A stretch of 64,000 bases of DNA from NCBI GenBank assembly GCA_028714635.1, contig JAQTLZ010000002.1:121841-185840 (forward strand), in the 5' to 3' direction. The position numbers were made by a program, and so were the translations under genes. This document shows, piece by piece, positions 21,025-64,000 of this stretch. Source of the stretch: Minisyncoccota bacterium. Lineage in GTDB: Bacteria > Patescibacteriota > Minisyncoccia > Phycocordibacterales > JAQTLZ01. The notes beneath the pieces were generated by a model. The model did no database searches, had not been told where the DNA came from, and was given only the letters and a program-made list of their open reading frames with translations. Numbering within the stretch: the stretch's first letter is position 1; every line of letters begins with the position of its first letter.

Positions 21025-22878
21025 ATGAACAAAAAAGGATTTTTGCCGGTTCTCATTGGAATAATTATCGCACTTCTTTTAGTCGGCGGGGGAATATTCT
21101 ATTTTGTTAAAAAACAGCAAACGGTATCTTCCTCTGTTGATGCTGTTTCTACTGCTGATTGGAAAACATATGGAAACGAGAAAGACGGTTTTGAATTTCA
21201 GTATCCCCCAAAATTTAAAATTGACCCAAATGCTTCCGAAGTATTTTTCGACATAACAGGAGAAGATAATCAGGTATTTTTTAGTGCTTCTGCTGACCCG
21301 ATCGTGGATGCACATGGAGTACCTTTGACTTTCGAAAAGTGGCTCAAATATTATGGCTTTGACGAGGGGTACAAAAGAGAAAACAGAACAATCAACGGGA
21401 ATTCATGGCTACGTTTAGAAGGTTCGGGTCGCGGTAGGACTTTTTATATTCTCGTGAAAGGAAATATGATGTACAGCTTTATTATGGGCTATGGAGCTCA
21501 GAATCGGCCGGACTTGCTTTTGTTGCAGGATAAAATTGTTACCACTTTCAAATTTACCTCTAATTCCATCTCCACTTCCGATTGGAAAACATACAGAAAC
21601 ATAAAAGAAAGATTTCAAATGCAGTATCCTCCCAGTTGGAAGGTGGTTGAAAATGTTTCTGCTCCATATCTTGTAAAATTTGTTGATCCTCTTCGTGAAG
21701 CAAAGCCGGGTACCGATCAGTCGGAAGATATGGTCTTAGTAGGTACGGGCACAATAAAACCCGCTGACTGGGAGAAAGGCTCCGGTTCGGTTTTCTGGAA
21801 GCAGGATTATGTAACGGGGGAACGCTACGTAAGAATGTCAGCCTTTGATGAAACTTCAGAAAAAATTGAAGAAAAAATTCAGTCTAGTTTTAGATTTTTA
21901 GAAGAAAAGGCGGGATGGTCTAGCTATCGAAGTACAACAGATCAATTTGATATATCTTATCCCGGCCTCTCGGCTCTGAATTTTTGGAAATTAAAGCAAG
22001 AACCCATAGAAGTTTATACCAATAAGTTACTTTTCGATTCAAGAGGGTGTCTTATAAGTAATCAAAAAAATCCTCTTGAATATATTGGAAGCCCTCTTCT
22101 TGGTGGTATTCAATTTTGTCTTAATCAAAGCATTGATCGTTCGATGGGAAATGTTTCTCTCGATTATTACTACACTACATTTAAATTCGGGAAATTTTAT
22201 GTAATTCACCTCAAGTCTGAAGGTCTTTGCACAGCCGATTCTTCAAAATCCTCTGATATTTGCAGTCTTGATAACCCCTCTGTCCAGTCGCGCATAAGGC
22301 AAGATGGGGATGAAGTTGCACTGTCTTTCAAATTTTTGGAGCCAGATCAATCAAAAGCTGATTGGGATACGTCCCCGGCAGATTGGTTGGTTTATAAGCA
22401 CCCGATTTATGGGTATTCTCTCAAATATCCTAGGAGTTTCTCGAACCATGATAGAGGAGAATCAGGAGAGAATTTAATTCCGCCCAATGATTATTTTGAG
22501 GGAACCACATTTCATGGCGGAGCCAGTTTTATAACCGGTATAAATGATGTTGATGAAAAAAACTGTTCAATGATACCTTATCGTTCCACTCAAGAGCTGG
22601 CCCGTGTTGTGAAGGATGGGCAAGTCTATTATAAAATTCAAACGAGCACTATCATGGCGGGAGATCCAAGGGACAGAGATCTCACTATTCAATACAGCGC
22701 GTTTAAGAATAGGGTATGCTATCAACTTACATTGAGCATGTATATCGTGAATCCTTCATCTGTTTATTCCAATCCTGAAGAAATTCTCAATGCCCAAAAA
22801 CAGAATATTATAGTGGAAGAGAAGTTGAAAAAACTATTTGATGTGATTGCTCAGACTTTTGTTGTACCGGCTAATTAG
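21025..22878 (+). CDS. Membrane-anchored extracytoplasmic protein with ~4 internal repeats
   Basis: N-terminal TM, then repeated modules each opening with a DW(K/D)TY...F(E/Q)(F/M)QYPP.(F/W)K-like signature. Confidence 0.85.
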   Translation: MNKKGFLPVLIGIIIALLLVGGGIFYFVKKQQTVSSSVDAVSTADWKTYGNEKDGFEFQYPPKFKIDPNASEVFFDITGEDNQVFFSASADPIVDAHGVPLTFEKWLKYYGFDEGYKRENRTINGNSWLRLEGSGRGRTFYILVKGNMMYSFIMGYGAQNRPDLLLLQDKIVTTFKFTSNSISTSDWKTYRNIKERFQMQYPPSWKVVENVSAPYLVKFVDPLREAKPGTDQSEDMVLVGTGTIKPADWEKGSGSVFWKQDYVTGERYVRMSAFDETSEKIEEKIQSSFRFLEEKAGWSSYRSTTDQFDISYPGLSALNFWKLKQEPIEVYTNKLLFDSRGCLISNQKNPLEYIGSPLLGGIQFCLNQSIDRSMGNVSLDYYYTTFKFGKFYVIHLKSEGLCTADSSKSSDICSLDNPSVQSRIRQDGDEVALSFKFLEPDQSKADWDTSPADWLVYKHPIYGYSLKYPRSFSNHDRGESGENLIPPNDYFEGTTFHGGASFITGINDVDEKNCSMIPYRSTQELARVVKDGQVYYKIQTSTIMAGDPRDRDLTIQYSAFKNRVCYQLTLSMYIVNPSSVYSNPEEILNAQKQNIIVEEKLKKLFDVIAQTFVVPAN

Positions 22879-22976
22879 AGTCTCTCCAGTGTTACCCTAT
22901 ATCTATCAACAGAAAATACTATCATATATGATAGTATTTTAGGAAAGGGAAAGGTCTACGTATAAGTGCTTTTTGA

Positions 22977-23882
22977 TTACATAGTGAAACCAGATGCAAT
23001 CATCTCACTAAGTTTCTTGCGCAGTATCTCATAACCATCGGGGATTTTTCTTCCTTGTTTTGTCTCCAGCATATGTTTTATGGGTCTTATAAGACCTGGG
23101 AATTTCGATCTTCTCAAGAGATCTTTGTCCTTTTGACCACTATAGAATGAGAAAGTCTGCTCTGCGAAAAGATTTCCATAATCCCACAAGCCAGCAAAAT
23201 CTGCTGCCGGATCTGCGATGTCGATATCTGAAAAATCAATAATGCCGGTTAAGGCTCCTGTGGTTTGGTCAAAAAGTATATGTTTGTTGTTTAAATCATA
23301 ATGAATTATTTTTGGTTCAAAGTCGAAAGACAGACCGAGATATTCATTGAACTGGTGTTCAACCCAGTCAACCTCTTTGTTTGTCAATTCAGGAAAAACT
23401 TTCTCTCGTAACTCTTTTAAAATTGATTCGATATTTCGCTTTCCCCACCAGTGCCCTTTCGGATCAGCCTTGAAACCGCAGTTTCTCAATATCTCCGTCG
23501 GCGTCGAATGTAAATCCGAAATAAATTTTCCTAATGCTTTGGCGATATCAGTTTTTTGAATTTCACTTTGTGAATTGAAAAGTTCAGGTTGCATTTCAGT
23601 ACCAGTCAGCATTTGATATCCACCAAAGCTCCTGTCTTTAGAAAGATAGATATATTTGGGAATGGGTAGCGTTACTTTTGTGAGTAGGTGTTCTAGGAAT
23701 TTTACCTCCACTTGAAAACGTCGAATATAATTCTCCGATTTAGGAAAACGGAAAATGAGCCTATCGTCCAAGACGATCACATTGTTATCCCATCCATGAG
23801 TGATCAATCTGGAATTTTGAAACGAAACTTCGGGGAATTCCTTTTTTATAAGCTCCAGATATTCTTCTTTTGTTCTTTCCAT
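22977..23882 (-). CDS. APH/choline-kinase-family phosphotransferase
   Basis: HYDLNNKHILFD (HxDxxxxN catalytic loop), GIIDFSD (DFxD). ATG (MERTKEEY) 2 nt downstream of the folA stop; the ORF track's upstream ATG 23906 lies inside folA. Confidence 0.85.
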   Translation of the reverse strand: MERTKEEYLELIKKEFPEVSFQNSRLITHGWDNNVIVLDDRLIFRFPKSENYIRRFQVEVKFLEHLLTKVTLPIPKYIYLSKDRSFGGYQMLTGTEMQPELFNSQSEIQKTDIAKALGKFISDLHSTPTEILRNCGFKADPKGHWWGKRNIESILKELREKVFPELTNKEVDWVEHQFNEYLGLSFDFEPKIIHYDLNNKHILFDQTTGALTGIIDFSDIDIADPAADFAGLWDYGNLFAEQTFSFYSGQKDKDLLRRSKFPGLIRPIKHMLETKQGRKIPDGYEILRKKLSEMIASGFTM

Positions 23883-59685: not shown

Positions 59686-62600
59686 GACGGCGAGGGTTAC
59701 AAATTTTTCTCCTCATTTTTTCTTCTCTCTGCATTTTCAATATAAACTCTGTAAAAGCGGAGACCGTCATCACCGATTCAGAAATTTCTGTCGATACCAC
59801 ATGGACAAAAGTAAATAGCCCCTATATTATTTCAGGCGATTTGATTATCGATTCAGGCGTGACTCTCACAATTGAACCAGGAGTTATTGTGAAAATGGAA
59901 AACAGCGCTTTGTATGTAGATGGGAAAATCGTCGCGGAAGGCACTGAAAACGAGAAGATATACTTCACCTCGTTTGCAGACGATTCTCTCGGAGGAGACA
60001 CGAATGGCGACGGTGCTCTCACGACACCATCGGAATTCGATTACGACGGCATCAGGTTGTGGGGAAGCGACCCTGGATCACATTTCTCTCATGCAGTTTT
60101 CCAGTATGCTTCAATAGCTCTCGATTTCGATACCACTACTGCCACACTGGATGCTGTCTCCATCGAGCATGGCAATGGAGGAATCTCTGCCTTTAATGCA
60201 GATATTTCTCTTAAAAATTCTCATCTTTTCGATCTTTCATTTGATGCAGTTGATGGATATGGCGCGAGTAAGATACTCGTTGCTTCAAGCATTATCGAAG
60301 ATCTTCAGGGCTCTGCTTTTGGCATGTATAACGACTCGATGCTCATACTCAAAGACTCGACGATAAAAAATCTTCAAGATGGAACTGGTGTGATCTTATT
60401 CGATTCTTTTGCGGATATTCAAGATTCGACTTTTGAAAATATTACTCGGGATGCGGTGGGTGTCTACAATTCGAAGCTTACTTTCAAGGATTCTTCAGCC
60501 AAAGATAATGATTGGGGTTCTGCAATTTATGCGCAAGGCACAAGCGATGTCACCATTTCAGGAAGTTCATTCGACGGCGGTTTCAATTCGGGCGTTGAAT
60601 TTTATGGAAACAGCTGGAGCGGACAACATTCTTCTTTTTCTGTATCAAACTCGACTTTTCAAAATTATCTTTATGCCGGAATAAGTGCGGGGGATATTGT
60701 TTCCGGGAGTATCGCTTCAAGCACAATTCAGAAAAATTTTATCGGTCTTGATGTGTGGAATATCCCGTTGCTCATAAGCGGAAGTGCAATAAAAGAGAAT
60801 GATCTTCTGGGACTTTGGAATGAATCGGATGAAAAAGTAGTTGATGCAAAAAATAACTGGTGGGGAGATGTAGGAGGCCCGTACGAAGAAGTTGGGAATC
60901 CGCTTGGATTTGGAAATGAGGTAATGGGAGCTGTTAATTACACGCCATGGCTTAGCGAAGATCCATTTTTAGTAATAGAGCCGGAGTGCTGTTCAAGCGT
61001 TGCATTTTTGCCGGGAATCGAGGGAAGTAGGTTGTATAAGCAGGGCCTGATTTTTGAAGACCAGCTTTGGGAGCCGAATTACTATAGCGATGTAGAGGCT
61101 CTTCATTTAGATGCAAATGGAAAAAGCAAAGACCCTTCGGTTTACACAAAGGACGTTATTGATAGTGTAAATATTGCGGGTACAAAAATTTACCGAAGTT
61201 TCATGGATGAGATGGATGGTTTGAAAACCGCAGGCACAATATCAGATTGGGAACCGCTTCCGTATGATTGGCGGCTTTCCGCGGATGATACGGTGGCGAA
61301 TCCTGTGAAGCTCGCAGGCGGGGGTACATATTCGATGGTTGCCCAAATTGAAAATCTGGCGGCAAATTCGAAAACGGGGAAAGTCACGCTCATCGCGCAC
61401 AGTATGGGAGGAATTGTAAGCAAAGCGCTTATCAAAGCACTTGAGGCAAAAGGGGAGGCGGGACTTATCGATAAGTTAATTCTGGTCGCCTCTCCGCAGA
61501 TCGGTACGCCACAGACAATTGGTTCGCTTCTGCACGGATACGGAGAAGAACTTTTCCACGGACTTCTGGCGGGCGCAGCCACAATGCGAACATTTGGCGA
61601 GAATCTTTCCGGAGCGTATCAGCTTTTGCCTTCTGCAGAATATTTTACAAAAGTGTCGGATCCGGTTGTTACATTTGATCCATCAATCGATACCGTTTCA
61701 GATTTCAGACAAAAATATGGAGAAAGTATTTCCACCAAAGCAGGACTTCAGAATTTTCTTCTTGGAGCAGATGGCAGAGCAAAACCATCGGCAGAAGATA
61801 TTACCTTGCCGAATATTTTGAATTCTACAATTCTCACAAATGTAAATACACTTCATGACAATATCGATTCATACCAAATTCCGTCGGACATTGCAGTAAC
61901 GCAAATTGCCGGTTGGGGATTGGATACGATAAAAGGAATTAAATATCAGACGAAAGATGTAACAGTCTGCGCCGATAAAGGAGCCTGTCAGACGAATAAA
62001 GAATTGGACATGCGACCAATCTTTACGGAAGATGGAGATGGGACGGTGGTGGTGCCAAGTGCGGCGAAGTTGAATACGAGTAAATATTTTTTTGATTTTC
62101 CCCTCTATAACTCGCAATTTAATATATCTCTTGAACATAAGAACATTCTCGAGTCTTCTGTAATTCTCGATTTTCTAAAAAACAAAATTATCGAAGCGAC
62201 AAGTTCTGCTGATTTCATTACTTCCACAGAACCAGATCCAGTTGATCTTGGCAAACAGATTCGTCTTTCTGGTCACTCGCCGATTTCACTAGATCTCTAT
62301 GATAGCGACGGTCATCACACGGGCCTTATCTCTATTCCTAATTCAGATTTTAATTACGCAGAAGAACAAATTCCGAATAGTTATTATTTTGAACTTGGCG
62401 ATGGGAAGTATGTAGGATTCCCAGATGATAATTCCACAAATGTAAAAATATCTGGCACTGGTATTGGAACTTTTACCCTCGATATTGAACGAGTGGTAGG
62501 AGGCCAGACAACCACAACTTCTTCATACGCGGATATTCCCGTTTTCCCAACAACGCAAGCCTCTCTTCTCGTATCTGCGACTTCCACCACGCTTTCACTA

Positions 62601-62924
62601 GATCTCGATGGGAATGGTGCAGTGGATTTCAATCTAGCTCCGACGCAAGAGCTTGATTCAATCGCGTATTTCAAAGTAATGAAGAATATCATTGCTTCTC
62701 TCAACTTATCTCCTGGCGTTACCAAGCCTCTTCTTGCTAAAATTGATAATGCGATAAAGATGCTTCAGAAAAGCAAGGTGTCAAATGTCCAGAAAAGAAT
62801 TTCTAGTATGTTGCATCAGATAGAAATAAAAAATAAAAAGAAAGTGAATAAAAAAATTGATTCTATCGACGCACAATTCTTGGTTACTATGCTTACTAAT
62901 TTATTAGATAATCTCCCAAAATAA
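59682..62924 (+). CDS. Secreted multidomain protein: N-terminal right-handed beta-helix repeats + C-terminal alpha/beta-hydrolase (LCAT/PGAP1-like lipase/esterase) domain
   Basis: Signal peptide. ~430 aa of parallel beta-helix-type repeats (Gly/Asp/Ser/Asn-rich, repeated 'S.F.' rungs). Lipase-like region with LIAHSMGGIV (GxSxG) and LVASPQIGTPQ. Confidence 0.9.
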   Translation: MRRRGLQIFLLIFSSLCIFNINSVKAETVITDSEISVDTTWTKVNSPYIISGDLIIDSGVTLTIEPGVIVKMENSALYVDGKIVAEGTENEKIYFTSFADDSLGGDTNGDGALTTPSEFDYDGIRLWGSDPGSHFSHAVFQYASIALDFDTTTATLDAVSIEHGNGGISAFNADISLKNSHLFDLSFDAVDGYGASKILVASSIIEDLQGSAFGMYNDSMLILKDSTIKNLQDGTGVILFDSFADIQDSTFENITRDAVGVYNSKLTFKDSSAKDNDWGSAIYAQGTSDVTISGSSFDGGFNSGVEFYGNSWSGQHSSFSVSNSTFQNYLYAGISAGDIVSGSIASSTIQKNFIGLDVWNIPLLISGSAIKENDLLGLWNESDEKVVDAKNNWWGDVGGPYEEVGNPLGFGNEVMGAVNYTPWLSEDPFLVIEPECCSSVAFLPGIEGSRLYKQGLIFEDQLWEPNYYSDVEALHLDANGKSKDPSVYTKDVIDSVNIAGTKIYRSFMDEMDGLKTAGTISDWEPLPYDWRLSADDTVANPVKLAGGGTYSMVAQIENLAANSKTGKVTLIAHSMGGIVSKALIKALEAKGEAGLIDKLILVASPQIGTPQTIGSLLHGYGEELFHGLLAGAATMRTFGENLSGAYQLLPSAEYFTKVSDPVVTFDPSIDTVSDFRQKYGESISTKAGLQNFLLGADGRAKPSAEDITLPNILNSTILTNVNTLHDNIDSYQIPSDIAVTQIAGWGLDTIKGIKYQTKDVTVCADKGACQTNKELDMRPIFTEDGDGTVVVPSAAKLNTSKYFFDFPLYNSQFNISLEHKNILESSVILDFLKNKIIEATSSADFITSTEPDPVDLGKQIRLSGHSPISLDLYDSDGHHTGLISIPNSDFNYAEEQIPNSYYFELGDGKYVGFPDDNSTNVKISGTGIGTFTLDIERVVGGQTTTTSSYADIPVFPTTQASLLVSATSTTLSLDLDGNGAVDFNLAPTQELDSIAYFKVMKNIIASLNLSPGVTKPLLAKIDNAIKMLQKSKVSNVQKRISSMLHQIEIKNKKKVNKKIDSIDAQFLVTMLTNLLDNLPK

Positions 62925-63337
62925 TGAGTCATCGAAAAATTCTAGGGACACTGGTAGTCATAATAACTTTATTGTTTGGCATCGGTTTGTCATTGATGTA
63001 TCCGAATAATATTGGATTGTGTTCTATTGGAGAAAGGTGTGTTTACGATTCAGTATTTTATCTCTGGAAACCTCTACTCTTCAGTCTAATACCTGTTCTT
63101 TTAGTATTGATCTTATTCCTATTTCTTTCAGATAAATTTTTCAATATTTGGTGGAAATTTGCCCTTGTTTATTTTATTCTCGCTTTTTTGTGGATTTCGA
63201 CAACACCCATAATGTGCCGCAGTCTTATCTGTTTTGACCGTGAATATGTGGCGATAGTTTCTGGAGTCGGATTTCTTATCGTTAGTTTCATTATAATCAT
63301 TACAAAAACTGTTCTTCTTCGCAGGAAAAAGATTTAA
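62924..63337 (+). CDS. Hypothetical membrane protein, coupled to the beta-helix/lipase gene
   Basis: ATG overlaps the upstream TAA by 1 nt; four hydrophobic helices. Confidence 0.55.
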   Translation: MSHRKILGTLVVIITLLFGIGLSLMYPNNIGLCSIGERCVYDSVFYLWKPLLFSLIPVLLVLILFLFLSDKFFNIWWKFALVYFILAFLWISTTPIMCRSLICFDREYVAIVSGVGFLIVSFIIIITKTVLLRRKKI

Positions 63338-63389
63338 AACTCGTACCAAACTTTTGCGCTCAAAGGTTCTTTGTTTGGGTGGGTGAGCG

Positions 63390-63438
63390 TAGTTAACATA
63401 TGTTAACTATTGCAATCTTAGTTAACATAGCATATAAT
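63390..63438 (+). promoter_or_regulatory. Operator/promoter: 20-bp perfect palindrome TAGTTAACATATGTTAACTA + third half-site + TTGCAA-16-TATAAT
   Basis: Palindrome 63390-63409; half-site TAGTTAACATA at 63419-63429 inside the spacer; -10 TATAAT at 63433-63438 only 6 nt before ATG 63445. Confidence 0.6.
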
Positions 63439-63444
63439 CGACCC

Positions 63445-63711
63445 ATGGAAAATAAAGGAACCAAGAAACTCTTATCGACCGCTGAAGTGGCTAAAATCCT
63501 TGGAATTAGTCGTGTTGCTGTATTTAAGAAGATTCAAAGTGGTGAAATAAAAGCCCAAAAAATCGGCCGAAATTATGTTATCGAAAGCACTGATTTGAGT
63601 GCAGCTCTCGGTGTTATTTTATCTCCTGAAAGGAAAAAAGAGATTGAGAAATCAGTTGACAAAACAGTGAAAGAATACGGTGAAGCTCTCAAGATGCTGG
63701 GTAAAGAATAA
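63445..63711 (+). CDS. Excisionase/MerR-like helix-turn-helix DNA-binding protein (putative antitoxin/autoregulator)
   Basis: LLSTAEVAKILGISRVAVFKKIQSGEIKAQKIGRNYVI: typical Xis-type HTH. Leaderless ATG 63445 preferred over the ORF-track ATG 63400, which lies inside the palindrome. Confidence 0.75.
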   Translation: MENKGTKKLLSTAEVAKILGISRVAVFKKIQSGEIKAQKIGRNYVIESTDLSAALGVILSPERKKEIEKSVDKTVKEYGEALKMLGKE

Positions 63712-63716
63712 TTGCC

Positions 63717-64000
63717 ATGAGAATACTTTCAGTCGCCGATGTTGAATATATTGGTTACGATCTGGCAAAGAAGCTTATGGCGTTTGATGAGCCCATTCCC
63801 GATTTTGTCACTCGTTATCCAGATGTTTTGGAACGATGTCTTATTGCCCCTTTCCAAACATATGATAATCGAGATTTGTATCCGACCCTCATAAAGAAAT
63901 CAGCCATTCTTTTTTATCTCATGATTAAAAATCATCCTTTTCAAAATGGGAATAAAAGAATTGCTGTAGCAACATCACTTTTCTTTTTAGCTGATAACGA
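63717..64000 (+). CDS. Fic/Doc-family toxin (death-on-curing type), 3' end outside window
   Basis: HPFQNGNKRIAV matches the Doc/Fic HPFx(D/N)GNKR motif. Starts 5 nt after the HTH gene. Confidence 0.8.
   Translation, partial: MRILSVADVEYIGYDLAKKLMAFDEPIPDFVTRYPDVLERCLIAPFQTYDNRDLYPTLIKKSAILFYLMIKNHPFQNGNKRIAVATSLFFLADN

Follow-up and report, generated by a model that had tools for sequence, protein, structure and literature searches.

A predicted toxin-antitoxin operon of Patescibacteria that pairs a winged-helix DNA-binding protein with a Doc-family protein

We analysed a stretch of 64,000 nucleotides (nt), hereafter called the window, from a Minisyncoccota bacterium of the Patescibacteriota (assembly GCA_028714635.1, contig JAQTLZ010000002.1, positions 121,841 to 185,840 of the forward strand). 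At the end of the window lies a pair of small genes on the plus strand, the first encoding a helix-turn-helix (HTH) protein and the second a protein of the Doc toxin family. The HTH open reading frame (ORF), a putative antitoxin and autorepressor gene of 88 amino acids (aa), extends from 63445 to 63711 with its TAA stop codon at 63709-63711. After a gap of 5 nt the Doc gene starts with an ATG at 63717 and runs past the window end, which leaves a 5' part of 94 codons (63717-64000, plus strand) with the catalytic loop HPFQNGNKR encoded from 63933. The pair is preceded by a perfect palindrome of 20 bp, TAGTTAACATATGTTAACTA (putative operator site 1, 63390-63409, no strand assigned), which adjoins the -35 hexamer TTGCAA (63410-63415, plus strand). 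A third half-site, TAGTTAACATA (putative operator site 2, 63419-63429, plus strand), is found inside the promoter spacer, and the -10 hexamer TATAAT (63433-63438, plus strand) ends 6 nt before the ATG of the HTH gene, without a Shine-Dalgarno (SD) sequence. The promoter TTGCAA-17-TATAAT agrees with the consensus at 10 of 12 positions.

These sequence features had been described in a first-pass annotation made from the letters of this DNA, and reading positions 62400-64000 we found all of them in place. The palindrome is identical to its own reverse complement, the half-site copy does lie within the promoter spacer, and the distances of 6 nt between -10 box (ending at 63438) and ATG (63445) and of 5 nt between the two ORFs (63711 to 63717) were as described. 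Both promoter hexamers were also present, with the correction that the spacer measures 17 nt and not 16. A mechanical ORF list starts the HTH gene at the in-frame ATG 63400 (103 aa). This start falls in the middle of the palindrome and upstream of the -10 box, and it is also unsupported by homologues, most of which are 84-88 aa long and begin with M-[ED]-[NK]-K; because of the homologues and the promoter position ATG 63445 was favoured. Within the window no further copies of the module were found, and positions 62800-64000 contained neither a structured RNA with a Rfam match at E<=1 nor an intrinsic terminator.

The Doc gene could be completed from a Candidatus Pacebacteria metagenome-assembled genome (MAG; GCA_028711105.1, locus L001) that aligns to the window over 4475 nt with 2 mismatches and encodes the whole ORF of 140 aa (L001:4192-4614). 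The protein scored 54.6 bits against the TIGR01550 model DOC_P1 (cutoff 38.65) and matched the Fic domain PF02661 with E 1.3e-10. Because the ORF is complete and passes the DOC_P1 model, the objection that the Fic/Doc core might be missing falls, and the Doc-family identity that had been proposed from the fragment holds. An AlphaFold2 model (predicted local distance difference test score, pLDDT, 85) had its best PDB matches in P1 Doc (3DD7, 3K33 and 3KH2, template modelling scores 0.61-0.74), and by Foldseek it was closer to P1 Doc than to AMPylating Fic proteins. In an alignment of 33 Doc sequences H73, P74, F75, N77, G78 and R81 were invariant and N79 and K80 nearly so. The loop HPFQNGNKR fits the Doc kinase motif H-x-F-x-(D/N)-(A/G)-N-K-R, in which Lys replaces the second Gly of the Fic motif; the Fic AMPylase loop HxFx(D/E)GNGRxxR was not matched, the Doc loop having NKR and not NGR. 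All 65 paired relatives carried HPF[QKEL]NGNKR. Phosphorylation of elongation factor Tu (EF-Tu) by Doc is attributed to Castro-Roa 2013 in PMC10440598, and motif and family suggest EF-Tu as the substrate of this Doc too. Public annotation names the toxin 'death-on-curing family toxin' and its partner 'helix-turn-helix domain-containing protein'. As a separate observation, the Doc domain (L001:4192-4611) matched the C-terminal third of PDC-S23 (E 1.6e-19), a PADLOC candidate single-gene defence protein of about 312-331 aa, and it also matched PDC-S05; related Doc domains thus occur fused within larger candidate defence proteins.

The HTH protein matched the Pfam family HTH_17 (PF12728, E 5.9e-10) and exceeded the cutoff of TIGR01764 ('excise', excisionase family DNA-binding protein). 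A Pfam scan at E<=0.1 returned only HTH families, with HTH_17 as the best, and no match to Phd/YefM (PF02604). In the AlphaFold2 model (mean pLDDT 80) residues 9-47 form a winged helix of strand-helix-helix-hairpin type with S22-I30 as the recognition helix, and beyond it follow a short helix (48-58) and a long C-terminal helix (61-84). The closest folds to the core in a fold search were mycobacteriophage Pukovnik Xis, BldC, RdfS and RacA, and the core superposed on such small MerR/Xis-like binders over 47-51 residues with a root-mean-square deviation of 1.0-1.6 Å. When the long helix was included, the nearest structures were MerR-family regulators (HiNmlR, SoxR, MtaN). A PDB sequence search with the HTH profile gave only marginal matches at E about 0.1. 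By its profile matches and predicted fold the protein belongs to the winged helices of MerR/Xis type, not to Phd, in agreement with the earlier description of a small Xis/MerR-type partner. The C-terminal tail, outside the DNA-binding domain, is among the best-conserved parts of the protein. In the homologue alignment T74, E77, Y78, G79, L82, L85, G86 and E88 were invariant; the conserved C-terminal helix ends in KTVKEYGEALKMLGKE, and the family follows the pattern ..KTVKEYGExLKxLGxE.

The palindrome consists of two inverted GTTAAC half-sites 10 bp apart, and 29 bp separate the start of the first GTTAAC from that of the third half-site. The window contained two perfect palindromes whose arms reach 10 bp or more, against an expectation of 0.115. 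All three GTTAACAT octamers of the 64-kb window fall within 37 bp at the HTH promoter, and GTTAAC itself was found four times (57122, 63392, 63402 and 63421; 9.3 expected), three of these at the same promoter. Across the related loci the density of GTTAAC was 19.9 per kb in the 100 nt upstream of the pair compared with 0.106 per kb in the remaining 358 kb, a difference of about 190-fold. The same palindrome class preceded homologous pairs in 49 of 67 loci. When upstream regions were aligned at the ATG, a recurrent layout appeared in which GTTAAC-N4-GTTAAC adjoins a TTGACA-like -35 hexamer and a further GTTAAC lies in the spacer, 29 bp downstream of the first (e.g. L012, L027 and L076). In an alternative layout the -35 hexamer is flanked by a half-site on its upstream side and by the full palindrome on its downstream side. 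GTTAAC palindromes are also retained by the distant relatives from other phyla.

The half-sites also varied together with the recognition helix of the HTH protein. GTTAAC went with a helix of the ISR[VI]AVFKKI type in 51 loci. All loci with CTTAAC showed the exchange K28Q, and these form two groups that are not mutual nearest relatives outside the helix. All loci with GTTGAC showed V24Q, and the two with GTTGTC showed V24Q plus F27L. We checked the association on three further V24Q proteins whose upstream DNA had not been seen before and found GTTGAC arms in all three. Because half-sites are enriched at these promoters and covary with the recognition helix, we consider that the HTH protein probably reads the repeats, and there is strong in-silico evidence that it binds GTTAAC repeats and represses its own promoter. 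The autoregulated operator layout of the first-pass annotation thereby received strong comparative support.

Some further observations concern these sites. The lone GTTAAC outside the operator in 64 kb may reflect avoidance of spurious operators or of an HpaI-type site. The second perfect palindrome with arms of at least 10 bp, the AT-rich AAAATACTATCATATATGATAGTATTTT of 28 bp at 22913-22940, lies between the convergent ORFs 21025-22875 (plus strand) and 22980-23882 (minus strand) and may act as a terminator hairpin or be bound by a protein. In two closely related loci with an intact HTH-Doc pair, L015 and L022, the 100 nt upstream lack any GTTAAC-type site; the operator may sit further upstream or be lost. 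The representative library also contained proteins of 3-8 tandem HTH_17 domains (P0241-P0260, P0262 and P0270), e.g. 4 repeats in about 235-250 aa, that outscored the single-domain antitoxins and carry LGISR[VI]AVFK[KR]I of the antitoxin type in each repeat. Such proteins might read arrays of GTTAAC-like half-sites.

At the related loci TTGACA or TTGCAA stood at the equivalent place relative to the half-sites, and a sigma-70-like promoter with its -10 box ending 6-8 nt before the ATG was present in 30 of 67, with an SD-like motif in 2 of 67. In the window an SD-like motif preceded 9 of 49 long ORFs, and at 9 of 50 gene starts a -10 box matching at 5 or more of 6 positions ended 6-8 nt before the ATG, a distance that stood out clearly from the other offsets. 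Judged by these counts, this Patescibacteria genome seems to make frequent use of leaderless mRNAs; in the distant relatives from other phyla the leaders contain an SD sequence. The leaderless geometry is typical of this genome and not special to the HTH-Doc operon, so of the leaderless promoter described earlier the -10/ATG geometry stands as a genome-wide trait and not as one particular to the operon. The geometry also suggests an actual leaderless start of the HTH-Doc transcript. With +1 at 63445 the palindrome would cover about -55 to -36 and the third half-site -26 to -16, and predicted occupancy of the operator over -55 to -16 should therefore exclude RNA polymerase, so that this arrangement of sites points to repression of the promoter.

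Relatives of the HTH protein were widespread. In a scan with one genome per species they were encoded in 381 species-representative genomes, almost all Patescibacteria, and 616 matches among 90%-identity protein clusters were likewise nearly all from Patescibacteria; in the 50%-identity library 417 clusters scored E<=1e-10. For the Doc fragment 5276 relatives were found. A Doc ORF with HPF[QKEL]NGNKR directly followed the HTH ORF in 65 of 71 parsed loci, and these paired Doc ORFs were 118-154 aa long with one shorter, most of them 137-149 aa. The ORFs overlapped in 39 of 64 relatives, with a gap of -4 in 32 loci and of -1 in 7, the commonest arrangement being an ATGA stop/start overlap. When three more distant members of the Doc subfamily were looked up on metagenome contigs and MAGs labelled Eisenbacteria and Actinomycetota (GC content 27-58%), all three were preceded by an HTH_17 gene. 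The 88-aa and 140-aa ORFs described here are thus small, adjacent and co-oriented with the DNA-binding gene upstream, as in the layout of toxin-antitoxin (TA) systems of type II. The genes flanking the pair differ between loci, and two MAGs (MGIN01 and DATDWI01) hold two copies each (L012/L013 and L022/L034), a patchy distribution in variable genomic contexts of the kind that marks type II TA modules. The first-pass annotation had called the partner non-canonical for a Doc toxin. The pairing does differ from the P1 paradigm, yet as a member of a large conserved family it is no local oddity.

Three neighbourhoods held additional features. At L088-L091 (e.g. L088:531-999) a distant HTH_17-Doc pair makes up a small TA cluster together with a toxin-antitoxin pair of a ribbon-helix-helix gene and ParE, located some 250 nt upstream. 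At L008 and L009 the HTH-Doc pair begins about 60 nt downstream of tRNA-His (L008:2865-2940 and L009:2859-2933); tRNA adjacency as an integration signal was rejected, since it was not systematic and was absent at most other loci. Just past the window end (L001:4646-5170), 31 nt downstream of the Doc stop codon, follows a gene for a 174-aa P-loop protein that weakly resembles the Gar/GrdA ATP-binding family and nucleotide kinases, a neighbour that is not conserved elsewhere.

We regard the pair as probably a chromosomal operon of the type II TA type, in which a winged-helix antitoxin stands in place of Phd next to a Doc toxin. The sigma-70-like promoter TTGCAA-17-TATAAT would produce a leaderless bicistronic mRNA, most likely starting at or next to ATG 63445. 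The HTH protein would recognise GTTAAC half-sites, with one dimer occupying the palindrome of 20 bp that adjoins the -35 hexamer upstream and further protein on the spacer half-site, so that RNA polymerase would be excluded and the operon self-repressed. Doc is probably translated by coupling or re-initiation, in view of the 5-nt gap here and the ATGA overlap in most relatives. As a Fic-fold enzyme with a kinase-type loop it would phosphorylate EF-Tu and halt translation once the antitoxin is lost; until then the conserved C-terminal helix of the HTH protein would bind and neutralise it. We take the tail as the Doc-neutralising element because it is conserved outside the DNA-binding domain, comparable to the C-terminal helix of Phd and to the Phd-C element of the NetFlax study, where this short element on an unrelated scaffold suffices to neutralise a Doc toxin (PMC10440598). 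On a more speculative note, Doc might bridge antitoxin dimers on both sites, as it does in the conditional cooperativity of P1 (PMC4803016). Toxicity, neutralisation of the toxin by the tail and Doc-dependent co-repression are thus features that we infer for this operon. The pairing is uncommon in its partner combination, yet it is not a new kind of system.

Several results weigh against a TA operon of this kind. The tail showed no detectable sequence similarity to Phd, and it did not fit the Fic inhibitory motif [ST]xxxE[GN] either; by inspection it reads T74-V-K-E77-Y-G79, one residue out of register with that motif. The promoter layout differs in about half of the related loci, and the repression geometry is therefore not universal. 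Both proteins are 55-90% identical across many candidate classes, an unusual degree of conservation for TA systems that could instead reflect a domesticated role in regulation. Relatives of the HTH protein were absent from 50,697 phage records and from IMG/VR contigs, and sequenced plasmids showed only partial HTH-domain matches (Amycolatopsis) and no full-length relative. On these grounds a phage or plasmid origin was rejected, and the classical addiction role on mobile elements finds no support for the same reason. Plasmid relatives of Doc were at most 39% identical and had AbrB-type or unannotated partners.

A role in abortive infection or phage defence would be layered on the TA mechanism and not replace it: shut-off induced by a phage would deplete the antitoxin, and Doc would then halt translation. 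Many TA systems act against phages (PMC10440598), and this Doc matches the C-terminal region of the PADLOC candidates PDC-S23 and PDC-S05. However, these are domain-level matches to candidate systems and the window offers no defence-island context, which makes this role possible but somewhat unlikely.

The conservation of both proteins would also be accounted for if the pair were a regulator and an enzyme and not a TA system. The HTH protein would then only control transcription, and the Doc-like protein would be a domesticated, non-lethal modifier, e.g. a tunable translation brake in host-dependent Patescibacteria, without neutralisation by direct binding. The chromosomal location of the module and its absence from collections of phages and plasmids agree with this, as does its position among housekeeping genes in the window, with L10 and L7/L12 a few kb downstream. 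Gene order, gene sizes, stop/start overlap, variable flanks, multiple copies and the neighbouring ParE pair fit a mobile TA system instead, and a conserved tail outside the DNA-binding domain is hard to explain without contact to a partner. We therefore consider the regulator-enzyme explanation unlikely. It is still less probable that the pair serves as a widely retained translation-control switch of Patescibacteria, as opposed to selfish addiction, with an invariant E-Y-G tail that inhibits Doc unlike the fold complementation by Phd and with a GTTAAC regulon beyond the operon. The tail might in that case act through an inhibitory glutamate by analogy to class I Fic antitoxins, and the wider GTTAAC regulon might perhaps work through the tandem HTH_17 proteins.

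Since the fold of the HTH protein with its long helix resembles MerR-family regulators (HiNmlR, SoxR and MtaN) and one half-site lies within the promoter spacer, the protein could also be a MerR-like activator that remodels promoter DNA. MerR-type activation relies on over-long spacers of 19-20 bp with the palindrome centred in the spacer. The spacer found here has the optimal length of 17 bp between hexamers that are already near consensus (10 of 12), the full palindrome is located upstream of the -35 hexamer with a half-site only in the spacer, and the 88 aa leave no effector-binding domain, so that activation of this type appears very unlikely. If the HTH protein were an excisionase or recombination directionality factor, the Doc gene would be cargo of an integrated element. 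This reading would agree with the TIGR01764 match above cutoff, the Xis and RdfS folds and the two loci next to tRNA-His, but it is hardly plausible, as there was no integrase among the Pfam calls of ten annotated neighbourhoods, the sites are inverted repeats over the own promoter and not att-type arrays, strict Doc pairing and the conserved tail have no role in excision, and viral contigs and phage records held no relatives.

We compared the probable TA operon with known systems. P1 Doc phosphorylates EF-Tu at Thr382, and its partner Phd acts as a repressor at two palindromic sites, with conditional cooperativity. Like in P1 Phd-Doc, the antitoxin gene comes first and is tightly linked to the toxin gene, the toxin scores above the cutoff of TIGR01550 DOC_P1, has P1 Doc as the best structural match of its model and carries a kinase-type loop (H-x-F-x-N-G-N-K-R), and several inverted half-sites are present at the promoter. 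In contrast to P1 and to canonical Phd-Doc in general, the predicted antitoxin is an HTH_17 winged helix outside the Phd/YefM family PF02604, and its tail lacks detectable similarity to Phd-C. Identity to P1 Doc was only about 18-21% in the structural alignment, the mRNA is probably leaderless, and the module resides on chromosomes of uncultured Patescibacteria, not on a plasmid prophage. The BldC, Pukovnik Xis, RdfS and RacA proteins share the winged-helix core. Proteins of the BldC and Xis type usually sit head-to-tail on direct repeats or take part in excision, whereas here we found inverted repeats at the own promoter, a conserved C-terminal helix in addition to the core, and a partner of the Doc toxin family. 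Class I Fic systems (VbhT-VbhA, FicT-FicA) differ in that neither their Fic AMPylase loop nor their antitoxin motif [ST]xxxE[GN] is present.

The closest solved Doc by sequence (E 5e-07) belongs to the chromosomal Phd-Doc module of Enterococcus faecalis (PDB 9VZC; PMC13034048), for which regulation through a single palindromic operator is described in PMC13034048. Its antitoxin is of the Phd type with a beta-sheet DNA-binding arrangement, unlike the winged helix and the palindrome with an extra half-site found here. A short C-terminal helical element on an unrelated N-terminal domain also neutralises Doc in PanA(Phd-C)-Doc of Corynebacterium doosanense (NetFlax, PMC10440598); there, however, the N-terminal domain is Panacea and not a winged helix, and the tail described here is not demonstrably homologous to Phd-C. 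In the predicted MerR(truncated)-PIN family (Makarova et al. 2009, PMC2701414) a classical TA toxin, there a PIN nuclease, likewise has a truncated MerR-like HTH protein as its antitoxin, and a MerR-type fold is therefore already in use among TA antitoxins. The same authors list only AbrB/MazE, PHD and YhfG as partners of Fic/Doc and predict the truncated-MerR antitoxin only with PIN (PMC2701414). Three Doc antitoxin superfamilies were reported later, with no HTH_17 or MerR type named (Leplae et al. 2011, PMC3141249). A full-text literature search, incomplete in coverage and with TA databases outside its scope, did not return any account of Doc paired with an antitoxin of the HTH_17, excisionase or MerR type.

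The mixing and matching of toxins and antitoxins is already accepted and the conceptual advance is therefore modest, with moderate surprise for specialists. What is added is a family of this size and conservation, in which operator and recognition helix covary cleanly. The covariation links recognition-helix residues 24, 27 and 28 with half-site positions 1, 4 and 5 and offers a ready-made specificity code for HTH_17 domains. The family is large and uncharacterised and occurs in uncultured, ultra-small bacteria. If the TA reading is confirmed, a winged-helix antitoxin of the MerR/Xis type would join the known partners of Doc toxins, and the pair would be among the largest and best-conserved TA-type families of uncultured Patescibacteria, present in hundreds of species.

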